This document shows positions 5,472 to 63,186 of a DNA stretch of 64,000 nt, in pieces. The notes beneath the pieces are model-generated. The model was given only the letters and a program-made list of their open reading frames with translations, was not told the origin of the DNA and made no database searches. The translations under genes and the position numbers were made by a program. Origin of the DNA: Desulfobacteraceae bacterium (GTDB taxonomy: Bacteria; Desulfobacterota; Desulfobacteria; Desulfobacterales; UBA5616). The stretch covers positions 13,415-77,414 of the forward strand of contig VMSV01000204.1 of NCBI GenBank assembly GCA_013791935.1, given 5' to 3'. How positions within the stretch are numbered: the first letter of the stretch is position 1; every line of letters begins with the position of its first letter.

Positions 5472-7430
5472 ATGGAACTTTATTTCCTGTCGTTGACCCT
5501 GATTTTCTCAGGAGGTTTTTTAGCCCTGATTTTGAACCGGCATTTCACCGCCATGAAACTTGCTGCGGTGATCCCCATCAGTGCCGGGTGCCTTCTGGGT
5601 CTGGCGGATGCCGTTGTCAAGCTGGTCCATGGCGGGTCGGATAAAACCTCTTTTGCCTATCTCAATGCTTTTTCCCTTGATTTTCAGATGGACGCGTTGT
5701 CGGCCTTTTTTTTGATCACCATATTTTTCATCTGCCTGCTGGCATCGATTTACAGCTTCCATTATATAAACAAGCCTGAAAAGACCCTGAAATCTTCGGT
5801 GAGCTATCTTTTCTTTGCCATGCTCATTGTGGCCATGGCCCTGGTGGTGACGGCCAACAACATGATCGCTTTTCTTCTCTCCTGGGAAATCATGTCCATT
5901 TCCTCCTTTTTCCTGGTGATCTACAGCTATACGTCTTCGGAAAACCGATATGCCGGACGTCTTTATTTTATTTTCTCCCAGGTGGGGGCCATGTTCATTT
6001 TTGCCGCTTTCGGCCTGGTGTATCAGGTGACGGGTAATTTTGGATTCACTGATGCGGCAACCCTTTCCCAAGGGGTAAAACTGCTGGTGTTCATTTTTAC
6101 TTTTATCGGATTTGGTTCCAAGGCCGGGGTGTTTCCCCTGCATGTCTGGCTTCCCCACGCCCACCCTGCGGCCCCAAGCCACATCTCGGCGGTGATGTCC
6201 GGGGTCATGATCAAAACCGGCATTTACGGAATTTTAAGAATGTATGCTGTTTTGGACCTGCACACGCCCATTTTGGGGAACATTGTTCTGGCCGCGGGCA
6301 TGGTGTCAGGCATCCTGGGAGTGGTTTACGCACTGGGGCAACATGATCTGAAAAGGCTTCTGGCATACCACAGCGTTGAAAACATCGGCATCATCCTCAT
6401 TGGCCTGGGCATCGGCATGATGGGGGTTTCTTCGGGTAAACCCGTGATGGCGGTGATGGGGTTCGCCGGTGGGCTGCTTCATGTGATGAATCATGCCATT
6501 TTTAAATCCCTTCTGTTTATGGGTGCGGGAATGGTCCTTCAAAAAACCGGCACCGGGACCCTGGACGTTCTTGGTGGGCTACTTAAAAAAATGAAAATCA
6601 CCGGGGCCACGTTTCTGATCGGGTCCATGGCCATTTCGGGGCTTCCGCCCTTTAACGGATTCGTAAGTGAGTTTTTTATCTACCTGGGGGCGTTCAAAGG
6701 AGTCTTGCTCACCGGAAAGCCCCTTGTATTGAGCTTTTTGGGCATTGTGAGCCTGGCGGTCATCGGCGGCCTGGCCCTGGCCTGTTTCACCAAAGTGTTG
6801 GGGGTGGTGTTCCAGGGAGAGCCCAGAAGTGAAGCGGCCAAAGACGTTAATGAGGATGGCTGGTCCATGCTGGTCCCCATGGTGATCCTTGCCGCGTGTT
6901 GTGTGATCATCGGGGTTTACCCAAAATGGTTCATTCTGGCAGCGGTCAAAGCCATCTATTCCCTTAACCCGGGGTACGGTCACATCCCCCTGGATGGTTT
7001 TATTGAGATCACCGGCAATATCTCCCGGGCCGCGTCCCTTTTCTTTGGGGTGATTCTTTTGGTTTTTGCCATTCGTTTCCTGGCGTACAAAAACAAACCC
7101 ATCACCCGGAGAGGGACATGGGGATGCGGTTTTACCCAGCCCACGGCAAGAATGCAGTATACCGGATCATCCTATGCCGCGTCCATTCTAGAATTTTTCA
7201 GGCCGGTGGCTCCTCTGGAAGAACATCATACGGAAATTTCCGGCGTGTTTCCCAAACAGACCCATTATGCCGGCCATGTTCATGACATTGCCGAACGATA
7301 TATGAAAAGGGTGACCGTTTATCCGGTGATGACCCTGTTTGACAAGCTTCGCTTTATTCAGCACGGGGATATCCACCTGTACATCGGGTATATCCTGCTG
7401 GCAATCGTCGTGCTTTTGTTCTTTATATAG
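5472..7430 (+). CDS. complex I NuoL / hydrogenase-4 HyfB / Mrp antiporter-like membrane subunit
   Basis: 652-aa polytopic membrane protein with the proton-pumping antiporter motif WLPHAHPAAPSHISAVMSGVMIKTGIYG. First gene of the six-gene module. Confidence 0.8.
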   Translation: MELYFLSLTLIFSGGFLALILNRHFTAMKLAAVIPISAGCLLGLADAVVKLVHGGSDKTSFAYLNAFSLDFQMDALSAFFLITIFFICLLASIYSFHYINKPEKTLKSSVSYLFFAMLIVAMALVVTANNMIAFLLSWEIMSISSFFLVIYSYTSSENRYAGRLYFIFSQVGAMFIFAAFGLVYQVTGNFGFTDAATLSQGVKLLVFIFTFIGFGSKAGVFPLHVWLPHAHPAAPSHISAVMSGVMIKTGIYGILRMYAVLDLHTPILGNIVLAAGMVSGILGVVYALGQHDLKRLLAYHSVENIGIILIGLGIGMMGVSSGKPVMAVMGFAGGLLHVMNHAIFKSLLFMGAGMVLQKTGTGTLDVLGGLLKKMKITGATFLIGSMAISGLPPFNGFVSEFFIYLGAFKGVLLTGKPLVLSFLGIVSLAVIGGLALACFTKVLGVVFQGEPRSEAAKDVNEDGWSMLVPMVILAACCVIIGVYPKWFILAAVKAIYSLNPGYGHIPLDGFIEITGNISRAASLFFGVILLVFAIRFLAYKNKPITRRGTWGCGFTQPTARMQYTGSSYAASILEFFRPVAPLEEHHTEISGVFPKQTHYAGHVHDIAERYMKRVTVYPVMTLFDKLRFIQHGDIHLYIGYILLAIVVLLFFI

Positions 7431-40036: not shown

Positions 40037-40373
40037 CGGAGAGGAGAAAAAGATGAAGATTTTTTTGGTTTCGCTATGGTGAAATGCAATTCGATTGCCA
40101 AAGTTATTTTTTTGATAATCTTTTTTAAATTTTGAGGTCTATCTGTTTATTATTCAGCAGGTTAAAATTTATAAAATTATTATTTTCAGCCAATTGAATG
40201 GTTTCGCCAGTGCAGGTGGGCAAGGTTTTGTTCACCATATTGAACCCTGAAAATGACGTCATTTGATAAAAAATACTGATATTTAACAATATTTTGCATT
40301 AAATCGCAGAGTTCAAAATTTTGAACCCCGATCATAATTTTGTACACTGGTTTTCGCACCTTCAAATTAGGCA

Positions 40374-56937: not shown

Positions 56938-58302
56938 ATGTCGGATAAAATACAGATCCTGTTTGTGGATGACGAGGAAAACAACTGCAAGGCCTTTGTT
57001 CGCCTCATGCGCCTGGAAAAGGAGTATGAAGTGGCCATCGCCTTGAACGGCCTGGAAGCCCTGGAAAGCCTCAAAAAAAAACCCGCAGACATCGTCATCA
57101 CGGACATGAAAATGCCGGAAATGGACGGTCTATCCCTGTTAAAAGAGATTCGGGAGCGGTATCCCGATGTTTTTGTCATCGTGGTCACCGGCCATGCTTC
57201 GGTGGAAAACGCCGTGAAAGCCATGAAGCTCGGAGCGTATGACTACCTGACCAAACCTTTTGACTTTGATGTCATCAACATGATCCTGGGGAAAATATCA
57301 GAGCATGCCCGGGTGCTCAAAGAGGCGGAGGATTTTGAAGAAGACGCCGGGAAACCCTACCGGTTTGAGAACATCATCGGCCAGGACCGGAAGATGTTCA
57401 AAATCTATGAAATGATCCGGGCCGTGGCCAAAACCAACGCTTCGGTGCTCATTACCGGGGAAAGCGGTTCGGGAAAGGAATTGATTGCCGAAGCCATTCA
57501 TTCTCGAAGCCAGAGAAAGGCAAAACCCTATCACCAGGTGAATTGCGCTGCTTTAACCGAGTCCATCATCAACAGTGAACTTTTCGGCCATGAAAAAGGA
57601 TCGTTTACCGGCGCAAACCAGCAGAAAATAGGCTTGTTTGAACTGGCGGATCAAGGCACGCTTTTTCTGGATGAAATCGGCGACGTACCATTGCAGATCC
57701 AGACCTCCCTTTTGCGGGTTCTTGAATACGGAACCTTCCAGAGGGTGGGGGGCTCTCAAACCCTGAAAGTGGATACCCGCATTGTCTGCGCAACCAATCG
57801 GGACCTTTCCGAAGCCATCCGCAACAAGCAGTTCCGTGAAGATTTGTTCTATCGCATCAATGTGGTGTCCATCGAGGTTCCGCCTTTGCGGGAGAGAAAG
57901 CAGGACATCCCGCTGCTGGCCAAATATTTCCTGGAAAAATACGCCAGGGAGAACGATGTTTCGGCCAAACGCCTGGCCAAATCAGCTGTAAAAATCCTCA
58001 TGCAATACGACTGGCCGGGAAACGTCCGGGAACTGGGCAATATCATCAACCACGCCCTGATTTTCTGCAAAGGCGGCAACATCATCCCCGAAAACCTGCC
58101 CCCGGGAATCCGGGAGAGTGCTTTTCAGAGGGAATTCAGCCTCACCTTTACTTCCACGTCCCTTCCGAAGGCTGAAGAATCCCTGATTCGACGGGTGATT
58201 GAGATGAATAACGGCAATCTCAAGCAGGCCGCGTCAGACCTGGATATCGCCAGGGGAACCCTGTACAGTAAGATGCAGAAGTACGGGATTGAAAAACCAT
58301 AA
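56938..58302 (+). CDS. sigma-54-dependent Fis-family response regulator (NtrC-like: REC + AAA+ + HTH)
   Basis: REC domain (ILFVDDEEN...VITDMKMPEMDG), Walker A GESGSGKE, ESELFGHEKGSFTGA (GAFTGA-type sigma-54 contact motif), C-terminal Fis-type HTH. Confidence 0.85.
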   Translation: MSDKIQILFVDDEENNCKAFVRLMRLEKEYEVAIALNGLEALESLKKKPADIVITDMKMPEMDGLSLLKEIRERYPDVFVIVVTGHASVENAVKAMKLGAYDYLTKPFDFDVINMILGKISEHARVLKEAEDFEEDAGKPYRFENIIGQDRKMFKIYEMIRAVAKTNASVLITGESGSGKELIAEAIHSRSQRKAKPYHQVNCAALTESIINSELFGHEKGSFTGANQQKIGLFELADQGTLFLDEIGDVPLQIQTSLLRVLEYGTFQRVGGSQTLKVDTRIVCATNRDLSEAIRNKQFREDLFYRINVVSIEVPPLRERKQDIPLLAKYFLEKYARENDVSAKRLAKSAVKILMQYDWPGNVRELGNIINHALIFCKGGNIIPENLPPGIRESAFQREFSLTFTSTSLPKAEESLIRRVIEMNNGNLKQAASDLDIARGTLYSKMQKYGIEKP

Positions 58303-58692
58303 AATTTCACGCCGCATTCAAACGCTGCCTTCGTTGGCTGCGTCCAAAACTCCTCGATGTACAAACCCCGTACACCTGCGTCGCGTTTCCCCGGCCGCCT
58401 CGGCATCATTTTGAATGCAACGTGAAATGCGGTTTCCGAATTTCACGGGAGTGATTTTTTTGCCCGAAATTGAACACTTCCAGACCTTCGGGACTTTTGG
58501 CCCGGAAACCCCATGGATACGGCTTTCCACCTAATAAACCGCCCCTTCCTTTTAAATAGAACCCCTTTGGTCTGCCCGATATTGAACAGTTCTCTTCAGG
58601 CTGTCCCCTCAAAATTAAGCCCGAACCGGTATTTGCAGAAAAAATAAGTTCAACATATTGATTTATTTGCAATTATATTTATTCATGGCCAA

Positions 58693-58708
58693 TGGCACGG
58701 GGGTTGCT
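58693..58708 (+). promoter_or_regulatory. sigma-54 promoter: TGGCAC-GGGGG-TTGCT (-24/-12)
   Basis: Exact match to the TGGCAC-N5-TTGC consensus, 72 nt upstream of the ATG at 58780. Downstream of the sigma-54 activator gene. GTGAAAT-N11-ATTTCAC inverted repeats lie 250-390 nt upstream. Confidence 0.6.
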
Positions 58709-58779
58709 ATTCTCATAGGCAAGCCCGGAAAAGCAATTTTCCCTGAATTGATAAATCATCCATTAGAAAGGAACGAATC

Positions 58780-58968
58780 ATGTCCAATAAACTCAGCCAA
58801 AGATTGAAAAGCAGCATTCACCTTACCTGTTATTCATGCAAGCATAAGGAAGCGAGCCATGCCTGCCAGTTTGAATGGGACGGCGTATGCTATCAGCTCT
58901 GCCTTTGTAACGAATGCGCTTCCATGGGAGAAAAACAGCTTTATTCGGATTTCCTGTGTAATTTATAA
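58780..58968 (+). CDS. small cysteine-rich hypothetical protein (62 aa, 8 Cys)
   Basis: GAAAGGAACGAATC-ATG RBS. The Cys pattern CxxC...C...C...CxCxxC...C suggests a metal-binding fold. Placed directly behind a sigma-54 promoter. Confidence 0.5.
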   Translation: MSNKLSQRLKSSIHLTCYSCKHKEASHACQFEWDGVCYQLCLCNECASMGEKQLYSDFLCNL

Positions 58969-59054
58969 TGGGTGGCCCTATGAAAACTCCGGCGTTTCGG
59001 GTGTGTTTGAATGGCCCGAAAACAGGAGATGACGGGGTTGAGTCCATGGGACTG

Positions 59055-61208
59055 TTAACGTTGTTTTAATACCTGTTGAACTTTTTCAAGCAGGGCGTTA
59101 ACGCTGAACGGTTTCTGGATGAACTCAATCCCATCCATGAGAATGCCGTGGTGCACAATCACATTGTCCGTGTACCCGGACATATAAAGTACTTTCATGT
59201 CCGGACGGGTTTCAATGATCTTGGCCCGAACCTCAGGGCCTTTCATTTGAGGCATCACCACATCGGTGAGCAGCAGATGGATGGTCCCTTCATAAGCTTG
59301 GGCCTGTGCAACCGCATCCAGGGGATGGTGCGATTCGATCACCGTGTACCCGCGATCCTTCAGGATCTTCACGCTCATTTCCCTAACCGACGGCTCATCT
59401 TCAACCACCAAAATCGTGGCCGAACCGTTTTCCTTTGGTTGGGATTGCGGTGGCTCCGGCAGGGCTTCGAGTTTTTCATCACATAAGGGCAGGTAAATCT
59501 TAAAGGTGGTTCCCTCCCCCGGTTCGCTGTAAACCCAGATATTGCCGCCATGCTGCTTGACAATCCCGTAGGATGTGGCAAGCCCCAGCCCGGTTCCCTT
59601 GTCTTTGCTTTTTGTGGTAAAAAACGGGTCAAAGATATTTTCCAGCACTTTGGATTCCATGCCGCAACCTGTATCACTAACGCCGATCATGGCGAACAAA
59701 CCCGGCTCAACACCGGGTTTGCGGTCTGTATAAGCCTTATCGAGTTCCACTACCCCGGTTTCAATGGTGAGTTTTCCGCCGTCGGGCATGGCATCCTTGG
59801 CATTGATGGCAAGATTCATCAGCACCTGCTCCAGCTGGGTGGTATCCGCCTTCACCGGAAGCATACTTTCCGACAACACCATGTTCAACTCCACATCTTC
59901 ACCGATCATCCGGCGAAGGAGTTTTTCAAACCCGCATACCACGGTATTGATGTCAATGGCTTTCATCTCAAGAATCTGTTTGCGGCTGTAAGCCAGCAGT
60001 TGCCGGGTCAGGTCCCGGGCGCGGCCCGCGGAAAGATGGATCGCCGTCAGTCCGTCAAAATGGGGATGCCCCTTCCGAATCCCTTCCAACAGCAGCTCGG
60101 AATACCCCAGGATGACGGAAAGAATGTTGTTGAAATCATGGGCCACCCCTCCGGCCAGCCTGCCGATGGATTCCATTTTCTGGGCCTGATGCAGCTGGTT
60201 GACCAGGCTTGCTTTCTCCGTTTCCGCTTGCTTTTGCTGGGTCACATCCCGCGAAATGCCATGAAACCCCACGGGGTTGGCGTTTCGGTCCCGCATCAGA
60301 GAGGCGGACACCGCCATAAACCTCGGGGTCCCGTCCGGAAATGAAGTTTCATATTGCAGCTGCCTCATCGGCTCTCCGGTTTGATAAATGCGGTTGAAGG
60401 CCAGGGTGATGGTTTCCGCAATTTTCGGGGTCATATAGCTTCTGGATTGGGTGGACAGGATGTCACTTCTTTCTCGTCCGAAAGCTCTATAGCCGTATTG
60501 GCTAACATAGGTGTAATTGCCCGCAAGGTCCACTTCAAAATAAATCTCACCGATGTTTTCCAGAACCATGCGATAACGGTCTTCGGTTTGGCGCAGGGCT
60601 TCTTCGGTGGTCCGGAAAGCGGTAATGTCTTCCACCGTGCACCAGACAAATGATTCTTCCCCTTTCTGAATCAGAAGGTAGTGAACCCGCACAGGTACCC
60701 CATGCCCGTCCTTATGGATGAATTCCTTTTCATAGGGGCCGTATTCGCGGTTTTCCATAAGAATGTTCAGTTGCCGGTGTTCTTGCTCAAAATATTTTTC
60801 CGGTGTGATCTCCTTTGTGTTCAAGCTCAGCAGTTCTTCCATGCTTCTTCCGGTCATTTTCCCGAAAGATGCGTTCACATCAAAAATGGTGCCATCCATG
60901 CGGCAGAGGAACAAACCCATGGGGGAAAGGTCAAAAAGCTGGCGGTTATAATGGGCTTCATCGGCGAGATCCATTTCAATCCGCTGCTGCCTTCTTAGCA
61001 TGCTCCTAATGAGGAAATAGAGCAAAACACCCGTAATAACCACATAAAACCAGCCCTTTAAGGTTTGGATCTGATGGATGATATGGGGAGGCAGGGACAT
61101 CATTTGAACCATCTTGTCCGACATAAGGATCCAAACAACGCCTAAAAATGAATACAAGGCGGCAATCCTGAAGGGCGTCCACCCCGGGTTGAATTTTGAT
61201 TTGTTCAT
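59055..61208 (-). CDS. hybrid sensor histidine kinase/response regulator (2 TM, 2 PAS, HisKA, HATPase, REC)
   Basis: His[30 protein letters not shown], HATPase G-boxes, C-terminal REC (ILVVEDEPSV...LLLTDVVMPQMKG). Sixth member of the same kinase family. Confidence 0.85.
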   Translation of the reverse strand: MNKSKFNPGWTPFRIAALYSFLGVVWILMSDKMVQMMSLPPHIIHQIQTLKGWFYVVITGVLLYFLIRSMLRRQQRIEMDLADEAHYNRQLFDLSPMGLFLCRMDGTIFDVNASFGKMTGRSMEELLSLNTKEITPEKYFEQEHRQLNILMENREYGPYEKEFIHKDGHGVPVRVHYLLIQKGEESFVWCTVEDITAFRTTEEALRQTEDRYRMVLENIGEIYFEVDLAGNYTYVSQYGYRAFGRERSDILSTQSRSYMTPKIAETITLAFNRIYQTGEPMRQLQYETSFPDGTPRFMAVSASLMRDRNANPVGFHGISRDVTQQKQAETEKASLVNQLHQAQKMESIGRLAGGVAHDFNNILSVILGYSELLLEGIRKGHPHFDGLTAIHLSAGRARDLTRQLLAYSRKQILEMKAIDINTVVCGFEKLLRRMIGEDVELNMVLSESMLPVKADTTQLEQVLMNLAINAKDAMPDGGKLTIETGVVELDKAYTDRKPGVEPGLFAMIGVSDTGCGMESKVLENIFDPFFTTKSKDKGTGLGLATSYGIVKQHGGNIWVYSEPGEGTTFKIYLPLCDEKLEALPEPPQSQPKENGSATILVVEDEPSVREMSVKILKDRGYTVIESHHPLDAVAQAQAYEGTIHLLLTDVVMPQMKGPEVRAKIIETRPDMKVLYMSGYTDNVIVHHGILMDGIEFIQKPFSVNALLEKVQQVLKQR

Positions 61209-61446
61209 AATAGGCCATTTCTATGGGAAATAAATGATGTGTGCGGAATTTTCATGGGAAAAATTTGTCACCTTACTGTGCAAAAAGAGTGGGGGCAAGT
61301 TTTTTTTTAAAGCCAGAACAATTACATAGACCGGCGAAACCCGGAAGGGCACTTCTTGGCCGAAAGCGATACAAATGCCGTTTTTCCCCGGGTGTTTGGA
61401 TTTCCGGAGTTTCTTAAATCTTCTTTTTGGTGTAACAATCCACGCC

Positions 61447-63186
61447 ATGAAACCCACAGATGAGCAGAAGGCCATCCTGGAATCCTCCCACAGGGTCATT
61501 CGAGTGAATGCCAGGGCCGGAACAGGAAAAACCACCACCCTGAACATGATGGCCCGGAAGCACAGCGGGGAAAAATTGATTTACCTGGTGTTCAACCGGC
61601 GGGGCAAGGAAGAGGCCGATACCCTGTTTCCGAAAAATGTGAAAAGCTATACCCTACACTCCCTGGCCTTTCGTTACGAAGGAAGAAAATGGAAAGACCA
61701 CATCGGCCATTTTTCACCATCGGATGCGCTGGATGCCTTCCGGTCGGATCAACAGGCCTTGGCCAACCTCACCCACGGGTTTTTAACTTTTTTTTTGAAT
61801 TCTCCCCTGGAACGGCTTGAAGAGGCTGCCGGTCCTTTTCAGGTCCATTTAAAAGACGAAGCCCTGGCCCTGTTCAAACTCCGATCCGTGAAAATCGTCC
61901 AGGCGGCCCGGGATATCGCAACTGCCTGGAACCGGAAAGAAATGCCCTGCCCCCATGATTTTTATCTCAAGCTGTTTCATAAATCCGGCGCTTTCCATCG
62001 GGCCCTTCATCAATATGATCGGGTGCTGGTGGATGAAGGCCAGGACCTTTCCCCCATCATGCTGGATGCCCTGGCAAAGTGTAAAAAAAAGGTGGTGATT
62101 GTGGGGGATACCCACCAGCAGATCTACAGCTTCCGCTATGCAACGGACGCCATTCGGCAGCTTGCCTGTGACCGGGAATATGATTTAACCTTAAGCTTTC
62201 GATTCGGAAAACCCATTGCCGATCTGGCCACGTTGTTTATTCGGGAAGCCAAAAAAGAAAAGCACTTCAGAATTGTCGGAAATCCGGAAAAATCCTCCCG
62301 GATCGCGTTTTACCAGACCCTTGAAAATATTAATAAAAATGACGTGGCCATCCTGTCCCGGACCAACTTCTCTTTGTTTGCCAATGCCATGAACTTACGG
62401 TCCCGGGGCAAGGCTTTTTCCTTTGAGCGGGATATCCAATCCATCCTGTGGCGAACCCTGGATGTTTACCGATTGTTCCAGGAGGATCGGGATAAAATCA
62501 AAGACAAGTTCATTGCTTCCTTTGAGGACGGGGCTCGCCTGAAGCAATACGCCGAGGAAATGGATGATTTTCAGCTCAAAGGCATGTGTCAGATTGTGGC
62601 GCGGTTTTCCAGGGAGTTTCCGGAAGTGGCCTTTGAAATGGCCCAATTGTGCAAGGGGGAATCGCCCGCTCAAAACACCATTACCCTTTCCACCATCCAT
62701 TCGGCAAAAGGCCGCCAGTACGCCGACGTTTTTATGGATCCGGACCTGGCTTTGGCCCTGGAATCCGAGGGGATCAAAACCATCCCGGAGGATGAAATCA
62801 ATCTGGTCTATGTGGGATTTACACGGGCCAAGGAGAACCTGTATCTTCCGAATGCTTTCCTGTCCGTGATGACCCCGAAATGGCGAACCGGAATGGAACG
62901 GATCAAGATGTCTCGAGCCAAAAGAAGAAAAATTTCAACCCCGTCAAAAATCCCCGGACATCCTTCCGTGCCTGCCGTGCCTGGCCCTGCAAAAATCATC
63001 CGGCAAGAAGCATCTGTTCCGAGGGTCCAGGATCATCTCGGCTATGAACCGGGAGATCGGGTTAGCACATCCATGGGTTTGGGTACCATCCTGGAAATCC
63101 GGGGCAGGGAATGCCTGGTGGATTTGGAAAATCAAATTGCCAAGGTCTGGCAGCCCTTGCGCGAGATATTAAAAGTATTGAAATGA
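61447..63186 (+). CDS. UvrD/PcrA-like superfamily-1 DNA helicase (short form) with a C-terminal Tudor/KOW-like tail
   Basis: Motif I ARAGTGKTTTL, motif II VLVDEGQD, motif VI-like ITLSTIHSAKGRQYADV. Start set at MKPTDEQKA; the track ORF starts 24 codons earlier. Confidence 0.7.
   Translation: MKPTDEQKAILESSHRVIRVNARAGTGKTTTLNMMARKHSGEKLIYLVFNRRGKEEADTLFPKNVKSYTLHSLAFRYEGRKWKDHIGHFSPSDALDAFRSDQQALANLTHGFLTFFLNSPLERLEEAAGPFQVHLKDEALALFKLRSVKIVQAARDIATAWNRKEMPCPHDFYLKLFHKSGAFHRALHQYDRVLVDEGQDLSPIMLDALAKCKKKVVIVGDTHQQIYSFRYATDAIRQLACDREYDLTLSFRFGKPIADLATLFIREAKKEKHFRIVGNPEKSSRIAFYQTLENINKNDVAILSRTNFSLFANAMNLRSRGKAFSFERDIQSILWRTLDVYRLFQEDRDKIKDKFIASFEDGARLKQYAEEMDDFQLKGMCQIVARFSREFPEVAFEMAQLCKGESPAQNTITLSTIHSAKGRQYADVFMDPDLALALESEGIKTIPEDEINLVYVGFTRAKENLYLPNAFLSVMTPKWRTGMERIKMSRAKRRKISTPSKIPGHPSVPAVPGPAKIIRQEASVPRVQDHLGYEPGDRVSTSMGLGTILEIRGRECLVDLENQIAKVWQPLREILKVLK

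Follow-up and report, generated by a model that had tools for sequence, protein, structure and literature searches.

The transcription units NtrC-glnAp2, ZraR-zraP, and AtoC-atoDAEB share an activator composed of a receiver domain, an AAA+ domain with a GAFTGA-type loop, and a Fis-type helix-turn-helix (HTH), and a control region in which two upstream sites lie more than 100 bp from a -24/-12 promoter with an A+T-rich stretch resembling a site for integration host factor (IHF) in between. It was found that a similar organization precedes the gene for a cysteine-rich protein of 62 amino acids in a 64,000-nucleotide stretch (hereafter the window) of a Desulfobacteraceae bacterium genome (GenBank assembly GCA_013791935.1, contig VMSV01000204.1, positions 13,415 to 77,414 of the forward strand). 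The small gene lies downstream of a gene for an NtrC-family activator, and two copies of a box, TGCCSGAWWTTGAACA, and a sigma-54 promoter lie between them. The comparison of loci indicates that sigma-54 control of the small gene is a family-wide trait across the Desulfobacterales, which is the main new result. The features on which the argument depends are as follows.

56938-58302, + strand: gene for an NtrC-family response-regulator enhancer-binding protein (EBP) of 454 amino acids, assigned by Pfam domains and motif positions
58461-58476, + strand: distal candidate upstream activating sequence (UAS), TGCCCGAAATTGAACA, 232 nt upstream of the -24 element, a conserved direct-repeat copy
58573-58588, + strand: proximal candidate UAS, TGCCCGATATTGAACA, 120 nt upstream of the -24 element, conserved
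58693-58708, + strand: sigma-54 promoter, TGGCACGGGGGTTGCT, recognized by an exact match and by ortholog conservation
58768-58772, + strand: ribosome-binding site (RBS), AAGGA, recognized by sequence, 7 nt before the ATG
58780-58968, + strand: gene for the 62-amino-acid cysteine-rich protein (7.1 kDa, pI 6.8), supported by substitution rates, the family, and an AlphaFold2 model

The small gene, its family, and its promoter

The 62-codon open reading frame (ORF) is a genuine gene. A search of 5.8 billion proteins returned four homologs of 73-95% identity, all of which are encoded directly downstream of an orthologous activator gene. Among the five sequences that these four make up with that of the window, synonymous sites are saturated (proportion of differences pS 0.59-1.0 vs pN 0.11-0.14 at nonsynonymous sites), the ratio of nonsynonymous to synonymous rates (dN/dS) is 0.07-0.20 where computable, and 21-37 differences fall at third codon positions vs 5-11 at the first and second positions together. 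No frameshift was found across the five sequences. An earlier reading made from the letters of this DNA (hereafter the sequence-only reading) had named a high dN/dS or frameshifts in related genomes as grounds for giving up the ORF; neither was seen, and the ORF is maintained. The cysteine pattern CxxC-x8-C-x7-C-x3-CxCxxC-x13-C described there is exact, with cysteines at positions 17, 20, 29, 37, 41, 43, 46, and 60.

The same reading had taken the protein for an orphan, and this did not hold: dozens of clusters make up its family. When 1.84 billion representatives were searched exhaustively with a profile, 34 family representatives at 50% identity were obtained, two of which (P0027 and P0030) are probably repetitive false positives, and a word-indexed profile search gave 44 clusters at 90% identity. 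When GTDB species genomes were scanned for family loci, the main subfamily comprised 26 loci, all from Desulfatitalea, Desulfosarcinaceae, Desulfobacteraceae, or loosely labelled deltaproteobacterial metagenome-assembled genomes (MAGs). The window protein has an identical NCBI entry, annotated as a "hypothetical protein", from a Desulfobacteraceae MAG. Family members are 60-95 residues long, and the longer called forms are apparently N-terminal over-extensions. The family signature is CxxC-x4-A-x15-CLCxxC, in which C17, C20, A25, C41, C43, and C46 are invariant; L42 and L54 are nearly invariant, and H27 and C29 are kept in most members. Close orthologs already differ at C37 and C60. Thus, the description as an eight-cysteine protein is true of the window sequence, while six of the eight cysteines are kept in the closest orthologs and five in the family as a whole.

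As judged from these sequence comparisons, the family is unannotated and restricted to the Desulfobacterales. Scans of the small protein and 37 family members against Pfam, NCBIfam, PHROGs, and PADLOC gave nothing above noise, and literature searches found no description of the family. A GTDB scan with the close orthologs gave no match, so that no GTDB species representative has an ortholog of the HACQFEW type; a metagenome scan with the P0006-P0011 subfamily gave no match either. In two comparison loci, L039 (about 6950-7140) and L040 (about 6975-7163), orthologs of the 62-amino-acid protein that follow activators of 80% identity are uncalled in the source annotations, and in L039 the start of a called transglycosylase gene overlaps the small ORF. 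Small proteins are systematically under-annotated, and these two orthologs are an example.

The promoter TGGCACGGGGGTTGCT has its GG doublet at 58694-58695 and its GC doublet at 58706-58707, 10 nt apart, in the right orientation upstream of the gene and 71 nt before the ATG. From the standard -24/-12 spacing, a transcription start is predicted near 58719. It is the sole exact match to TGGCAC-N5-TTGCW in the window, where I estimate that about 0.06 would be expected by chance. When one mismatch is allowed, the window holds three sites vs 2.3 expected, so that the argument for the promoter rests on conservation and not on the match alone. The other two of these sites, TGGCAATCGAATTGCA (40085-40100, - strand) and TGGCACCATTTTTGAT (60879-60894, - strand, inside a kinase coding region), are within the number expected by chance.

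The conservation is extensive. Seven orthologous loci were compared (the window, L001-L004, L039, and L040), and the sigma-54 element is kept in all of them while the flanks diverge. Each of the 26 main-subfamily loci from GTDB has TGGCAY-N5-TTGCT at 49-81 nt before the start codon; the 292,510 positions scanned in these loci hold only 30 sites as good, of which 26 are the small-gene promoters. The element also precedes the small ORF in L005, L008-L010, L037, and L038. Altogether, the canonical TGGCAY-N5-TTGC was found 49-81 nt before the ATG in all but one of about 38 loci examined. Thus, the exact -24/-12 element noticed in the sequence-only reading is present and is conserved in the seven orthologous loci as well as in about 30 from distant family members. 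Since the loci with the element have quite different contexts, the promoter is tied to the small gene and not to its neighbourhood. A chance origin of the ORF or of the promoter has a practically nil probability: a single exact match in 64 kb is not overwhelming, nor are three sites with up to one mismatch, but the ORF is under purifying selection and the conservation of both ORF and promoter in about 38 loci of different contexts refutes it. The well-placed RBS is also present, and AAAGGAA is kept in most of the aligned orthologs.

The adjacent activator and the upstream boxes

The assignment of the upstream gene to the NtrC-type EBPs was fully borne out. The protein has a receiver domain (Response_reg PF00072, E 1.4e-30, residues 7-113) with D11/D12, the acceptor D56, T84, and K106 at their standard places, and a sigma-54 AAA+ domain (Sigma54_activat PF00158, E 1.2e-71) matched over its full length (1-168 of 168), together with an AAA_lid_14 domain. 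Walker A (GESGSGKE, 174-181), the GSFTGA loop (221-226), and Walker B (LFLDEIGD, 242-249) are present, and a C-terminal Fis-type HTH domain (HTH_8 PF02954, E 2.5e-8, residues 409-449) has its HTH at residues 426-451. The protein scored below every NCBIfam equivalog cut-off (AtoC 464 vs 714 bits, PEP_resp_reg 427 vs 503, NtrC 426 vs 559, and ZraR 406 vs 760); thus, it is not AtoC, NtrC, or ZraR. Activator orthologs of 79-98% identity occupy the same position in L001-L004, L039, and L040.

An alignment of five activator-to-small-ORF spacers revealed that hardly anything aligns except the promoter, the RBS, and the two TGCCSGAWWTTGAACA copies, which are also the only exact matches to this box in the window. 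Relative to the start of the -24 element, the proximal box lies at -112 to -124 in all seven orthologous loci (at -112 to -121 in those other than the window) as well as in the unlinked loci L037, L038, and L010, and the distal box lies at -232 to -365 in all seven. The last three loci encode small-ORF relatives of 27-58% identity with no activator nearby, as surveyed over about 3-5 kb on each side of the small ORF (the L038 contig is 954 nt). In L037 the boxes are at -122 and, in weaker form, at -365; in L038 they are at -124 and -380; and L010 has only the proximal box, at -124, in a version that extends into a better palindrome. Thus, the repeated arrangement is seen in nine loci, where the proximal box is at -112 to -124 and the distal one at -232 to -380. 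A third, weak copy in the 5' untranslated region (58737-58751) is not conserved in the orthologs. Between the proximal box and the promoter, a further candidate feature was found within a stretch of 65% A+T.

58651-58663, - strand: candidate IHF-consensus-like site, AATCAATATGTTG (WATCAANNNNTTR), an exact consensus match

In the spacer alignment, L002-L004 do not share this IHF-like sequence.

Does the adjacent activator regulate the small gene? The order of activator, boxes, promoter, and small ORF is the same in seven genomes, while the downstream genes differ. Moreover, the 2.43-Mb contig of L039 also holds, about 490 kb away, a paralog of 58% identity (P0005, L037 5001-5189) with the -122 box, a sigma-54 promoter (TGGCATACGGGTTGCA), and no activator nearby. 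One activator ortholog and two matching targets on one contig support the adjacent activator as the regulator. The genes preceding the L037 paralog are CoA-transferase, ferric-reductase-like, and YceI genes.

The promoter might instead be driven by another, unlinked activator, in which case the adjacent EBP would have other targets and be a neighbour by synteny only. Over the about 3-5 kb compared on each side (954 nt in all for L038), an activator gene next to the small ORF was seen in none of the 26 main-subfamily loci, nor in L010, L037, or L038. The seven genomes share the same upstream genes (GlpD-like, metallo-beta-lactamase-fold, and GNAT genes, followed by the EBP gene), so that the adjacency could be inherited. 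According to one survey, Desulfobacteria have the most activator genes, in very large numbers (PMC12316311). On the other hand, the small ORF stays with the activator where the downstream genes have been exchanged, and the box recurs before both small-ORF paralogs in the genome that has a single activator ortholog. Metagenomes of the same kinds commonly contain activator orthologs of 58-72% identity. I therefore regard control by an unlinked activator as unlikely and control by the adjacent activator as fairly probable. The activator and the small gene plausibly form a dedicated pair. This is the part of the dedicated signal-to-small-metalloprotein circuit of the sequence-only reading that stands in the seven genomes; the kinase falls outside it (see below), and the metal is suggested by the cysteine pattern and the predicted fold.

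The box was also found in front of other small ORFs. A scan of JGI metagenomes for a box, 90-115 nt, and a promoter gave four contigs, two of which are from the window's own species. L041 (Ga0307990_1021974, 958-2462) has a TGCCSGATATTGAACA box and a sigma-54 promoter before three tandem small ORFs, with double-glycine-type leaders (MNSTKxNEVKKTDEDVQEKQELSDEEIEGVVGG) and variable cores of 16-19 residues. L043 (Ga0255053_10016532, reverse complement, 1174-1600) has a TGCCSGATATTGAACA box and a sigma-54 promoter before one 34-residue ORF, which shares the MNSTK... leader and has no GG motif. A second box lies about 91 nt upstream of the first, exact in L041 and weaker in L043. The L041 ORFs look like precursors of exported peptides or of peptides resembling ribosomally synthesized and post-translationally modified ones, under the same kind of activator control. 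The two contigs hint that activators of this DNA specificity may control other small peptides elsewhere.

The gap after the activator and the neighbouring genes

The gap between the activator gene and the small ORF (58303-58779) is 477 nt in length, as first noted. Its 5' part and the region downstream of the small ORF contain two more features.

58304-58460, + strand: structured terminator-like element, recognized by inverted repeats, RNA fold, and a terminator-like match
59055-61208, - strand: gene for a convergent hybrid histidine kinase (two PAS domains, HisKA, HATPase_c, and a receiver), assigned by Pfam

In the terminator-like element, a long stem pairs 58304-58322 with 58410-58428, and a small hairpin (58421-58447) follows, and then a U7 run (58454-58460). 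The predicted RNA fold has -50.9 kcal/mol (z = -3.0), and none of 200 shuffles was as stable. The GTGAAAT/ATTTCAC arms at 58421-58432 and 58436-58447 form a good 12-nt inverted repeat, and a third copy, ATTTCAC, lies at 58304-58310, 2 nt off the 58306-58312 first given for this half-site. The spacer alignment revealed that 27 nt of the element are missing from L001, whose activator is 98% identical, and that nothing in the spacers of L002-L004 aligns to it. An Rfam scan of 58200-59100 found no RNA family in the gap. The simplest reading of these sequence features is a lineage-specific terminator of the activator gene. No convincing intrinsic terminator was found after the small ORF (z = -1.5).

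The sequence-only reading had proposed the inverted repeats as the UAS of the activator and had included the convergent kinase in the circuit. If so, the kinase would be the dedicated sensor and the palindromes would be the activator sites. The kinase gene does lie convergent just downstream of the small ORF, its end being 86 nt past it, and the physical proximity in the window and L001 and the quality of the 12-nt inverted repeat favour this reading. However, the repeats are stems of a terminator-like hairpin followed by U7, partly deleted in L001 and absent from L002-L004, and were rejected as activator sites; the conserved elements of the gap are the two TGCCSGAWWTTGAACA boxes. Likewise, the kinase is confined to the window and L001. 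In the other five orthologous loci (L002-L004, L039, and L040), other genes take its place, and the surrounding 5 kb or so contains no called kinase gene. Because five of the seven loci lack the kinase and it has, as a hybrid kinase, a receiver domain of its own, it is unlikely to be a dedicated partner, which makes the activator effectively an orphan response regulator. In sum, a circuit made of this kinase and these palindromes is highly improbable.

The genes downstream of the small ORF differ between the lineages. The kinase gene and a UvrD-like helicase gene are found in the window and L001. In the other five orthologous loci, glycogen phosphorylase and HDOD genes are found, preceded by a lytic transglycosylase (SLT) gene in four of the five. 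It is likely from this comparison that the kinase (59055-61208) and helicase block is an insertion or replacement in the lineage of the window and L001. For the helicase (61375-63186, + strand), the PADLOC matches were only generic GajB-like ones, and no search for GajA was made. The SLT gene follows the small ORF in loci of several subfamilies (L002 6226-7077, L004 6096-6887, L010 5248-5970, L039 7021-7863, and L040 7194-8096), with a spacing of 26-38 nt where both genes are called (L002, L004, and L010). This suggests an ancestral operon of the small ORF and SLT, with SLT lost from this position in the window lineage. The small gene of the main subfamily comes after genes for ArgJ, a pseudouridine synthase, and a UDP-glucose dehydrogenase, and no activator gene lies within about 3 kb of it. 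In nine loci of this subfamily (L005, L008, L009, L015, L016, L018, L020, L025, and L027), a gene of about 97 codons for a PilZ-domain protein lies convergent to the small ORF, which may be mere synteny.

The predicted fold and comparison with known systems

An AlphaFold2 model of the small protein (mean confidence score pLDDT 70 with 5 sequences and 75 with 64 sequences) has a CxxC knuckle, a beta-hairpin of two strands (27-33 and 36-42), and two helices (44-49 and 51-61). The second CxxC lies at a helix N-terminus, which is treble-clef geometry. The spacing C17-x2-C20-x22-C43-x2-C46, with the hairpin in between and the helix at the second CxxC, is that of the C4 fingers of the McsA/ClpX type (CxxC-x(18-22)-CxxC). 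According to the model, the product most likely folds round one tetrahedral Cys4 metal site, probably occupied by zinc, with C17 and C20 on the knuckle and C43 and C46 at the helix N-terminus as the most likely ligands. Because the protein has neither a signal peptide nor a hydrophobic segment and its pI is 6.8, it is probably cytoplasmic and no obvious DNA binder.

The best resemblance, as yet unproven, is to the N-terminal zinc finger of McsA (PDB 8wtb_B), in which the CxxC-x22-CxxC spacing is identical. The two share C-x2-C-x3-(P)A-T, the hairpin G, and a hydrophobic residue before the second CxxC. The pairwise hhalign comparison gave a probability of 47% and an E of 2e-4 over 38 gapless columns, and the resemblance had an E of 1.2 in a PDB profile search, which is not significant at database scale. 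The likeness to the zinc-binding domain of ClpX is weaker (hhalign probability 2.8%). Foldseek found no significant structural match; the ClpG/ClpK N-terminal domain was a weak one (probability 0.91, E 0.25). Fingers of the McsA/ClpX type are protein-interaction modules of AAA+-associated systems; thus, by analogy, the protein would be expected to serve as a small protein-binding module, an adaptor or regulator, rather than as an enzyme or DNA binder. The Lsr2 dimerization domain (PF11774), a lead that arose from a faint Pfam match and high ranks in fold searches, was rejected (11.4 bits vs a gathering score of 29.6, Pfam E 0.25, hhalign probability 0.13%). The N-terminal dimerization domain of Lsr2 has no metal site, and the likeness is limited to the window subfamily. 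Haloferax HVO_2753 (PDB 6ydh) is likewise a free-standing protein of about 60 residues with several CxxC motifs and proposed regulatory roles, but it differs in cysteine spacing and in its archaeal lineage (Foldseek E 1.3, probability 0.11).

Could the small protein be redox-active or metal-handling instead, for example an Fe(Cys)4 carrier of the rubredoxin or desulforedoxin kind, a thiol switch, or a metal buffer? The five invariant cysteines and the mostly kept H27 and C29 exceed the needs of one Cys4 site. Small Fe-Cys4 proteins are common in anaerobic sulfate reducers, to which the hosts belong, and CxC with CxxC recalls the zinc redox switch of Hsp33. However, neither Pfam nor NCBIfam gave a rubredoxin, desulforedoxin, or metallothionein match at E up to 1, the CxxCG/CPxCG knuckles and the CxxC...CC motif are absent from the sequence, and the second CxxC of the model starts a helix in the treble-clef manner, which usually means structural zinc. 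Such a role is doubtful.

The reading that I favour as a whole, and consider probable, is that of a genuine cytoplasmic mini-protein from a sigma-54-dependent family, activated by an NtrC-type protein through the boxes and folded round a Cys4 metal site. In it, I infer the binding of the activator to the boxes, the metal, and the molecular role. Some kinase would phosphorylate the adjacent response regulator at D56, whereupon the activator would oligomerize on the two TGCCSGAWWTTGAACA boxes at -120 and -232 from the -24 element. The DNA would loop across the A+T-rich, IHF-like stretch, and the AAA+ domain with its GSFTGA loop would open the closed complex of sigma-54 at TGGCAC-N5-TTGCT. The transcript from near 58719 would be monocistronic, since the next gene is convergent.

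Several points weigh against this reading. In the largest subfamily, the small gene is not beside an activator, so the adjacency is clade-specific, and the seven genomes with it are related, which makes shared synteny a confounder. L006 and L007 have a variant -12 region, TGGCAC-N5-TTGAT instead of TTGC. The dyad of the box is weak (TGCCCGA/TTGAACA, that is, TG-N2-C-N-A...T-N-G-N2-CA), and C41 is an invariant fifth cysteine beyond the four of the predicted Cys4 site. All the host organisms are uncultured MAGs. Finally, the upstream element of the main subfamily is a different palindrome, TATCA-N3-TGATA, found in 15 of the 26 loci at -110 to -134 (background, 12 matches in 151,680 nt), together with a half-site, CTATCA, near -93; a search upstream of these main-subfamily genes gave no window-type box. 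This palindrome, seen in L011-L031, lies at the same promoter distance as the window-type box and is probably the site of a diverged activator. By eye, both motif types share a TCA...TGA core, which would fit diverging orthologous activators.

A more speculative and quite unlikely possibility is that the family is a dedicated output of one conserved sigma-54 and activator circuit in the Desulfobacterales, in which a free-standing McsA/ClpX-like metal finger would serve an AAA+ machine, a kinase, or the activator itself as adaptor or feedback regulator, and that the same activator specificity also governs secreted double-glycine-leader peptides in related bacteria (L041 and L043). If true, it would be a sigma-54-governed regulon of small-protein and peptide signalling, previously unseen. 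In any case, the locus is a clean testable unit: one response-regulator activator, two DNA boxes, one sigma-54 promoter, and one 7-kDa product. Sigma-54 control of the small gene appears to be conserved across an order of sulfate reducers that matter in the environment and that have the largest sets of sigma-54 activators known. Once its signal and partner are defined, the mini-protein would give a function to one of many orphan activators, and the family would be added to the short list of characterized bacterial zinc-finger micro-proteins.

Among the NtrC-family units with which the locus was compared, ZraR-zraP is the nearest analogy in logic, since in both a single small protein seems to be the only local target. 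Unlike ZraP, the target here is probably cytoplasmic, and it is cysteine-rich and unrelated. The locus also differs from all three units in that no cognate kinase gene is conserved nearby and the box TGCCSGAWWTTGAACA is weakly dyadic. Thus, what appears to be new is the undescribed small-protein family, its family-wide sigma-54 control, and a candidate activator box, while the regulatory architecture itself is of the textbook NtrC type.

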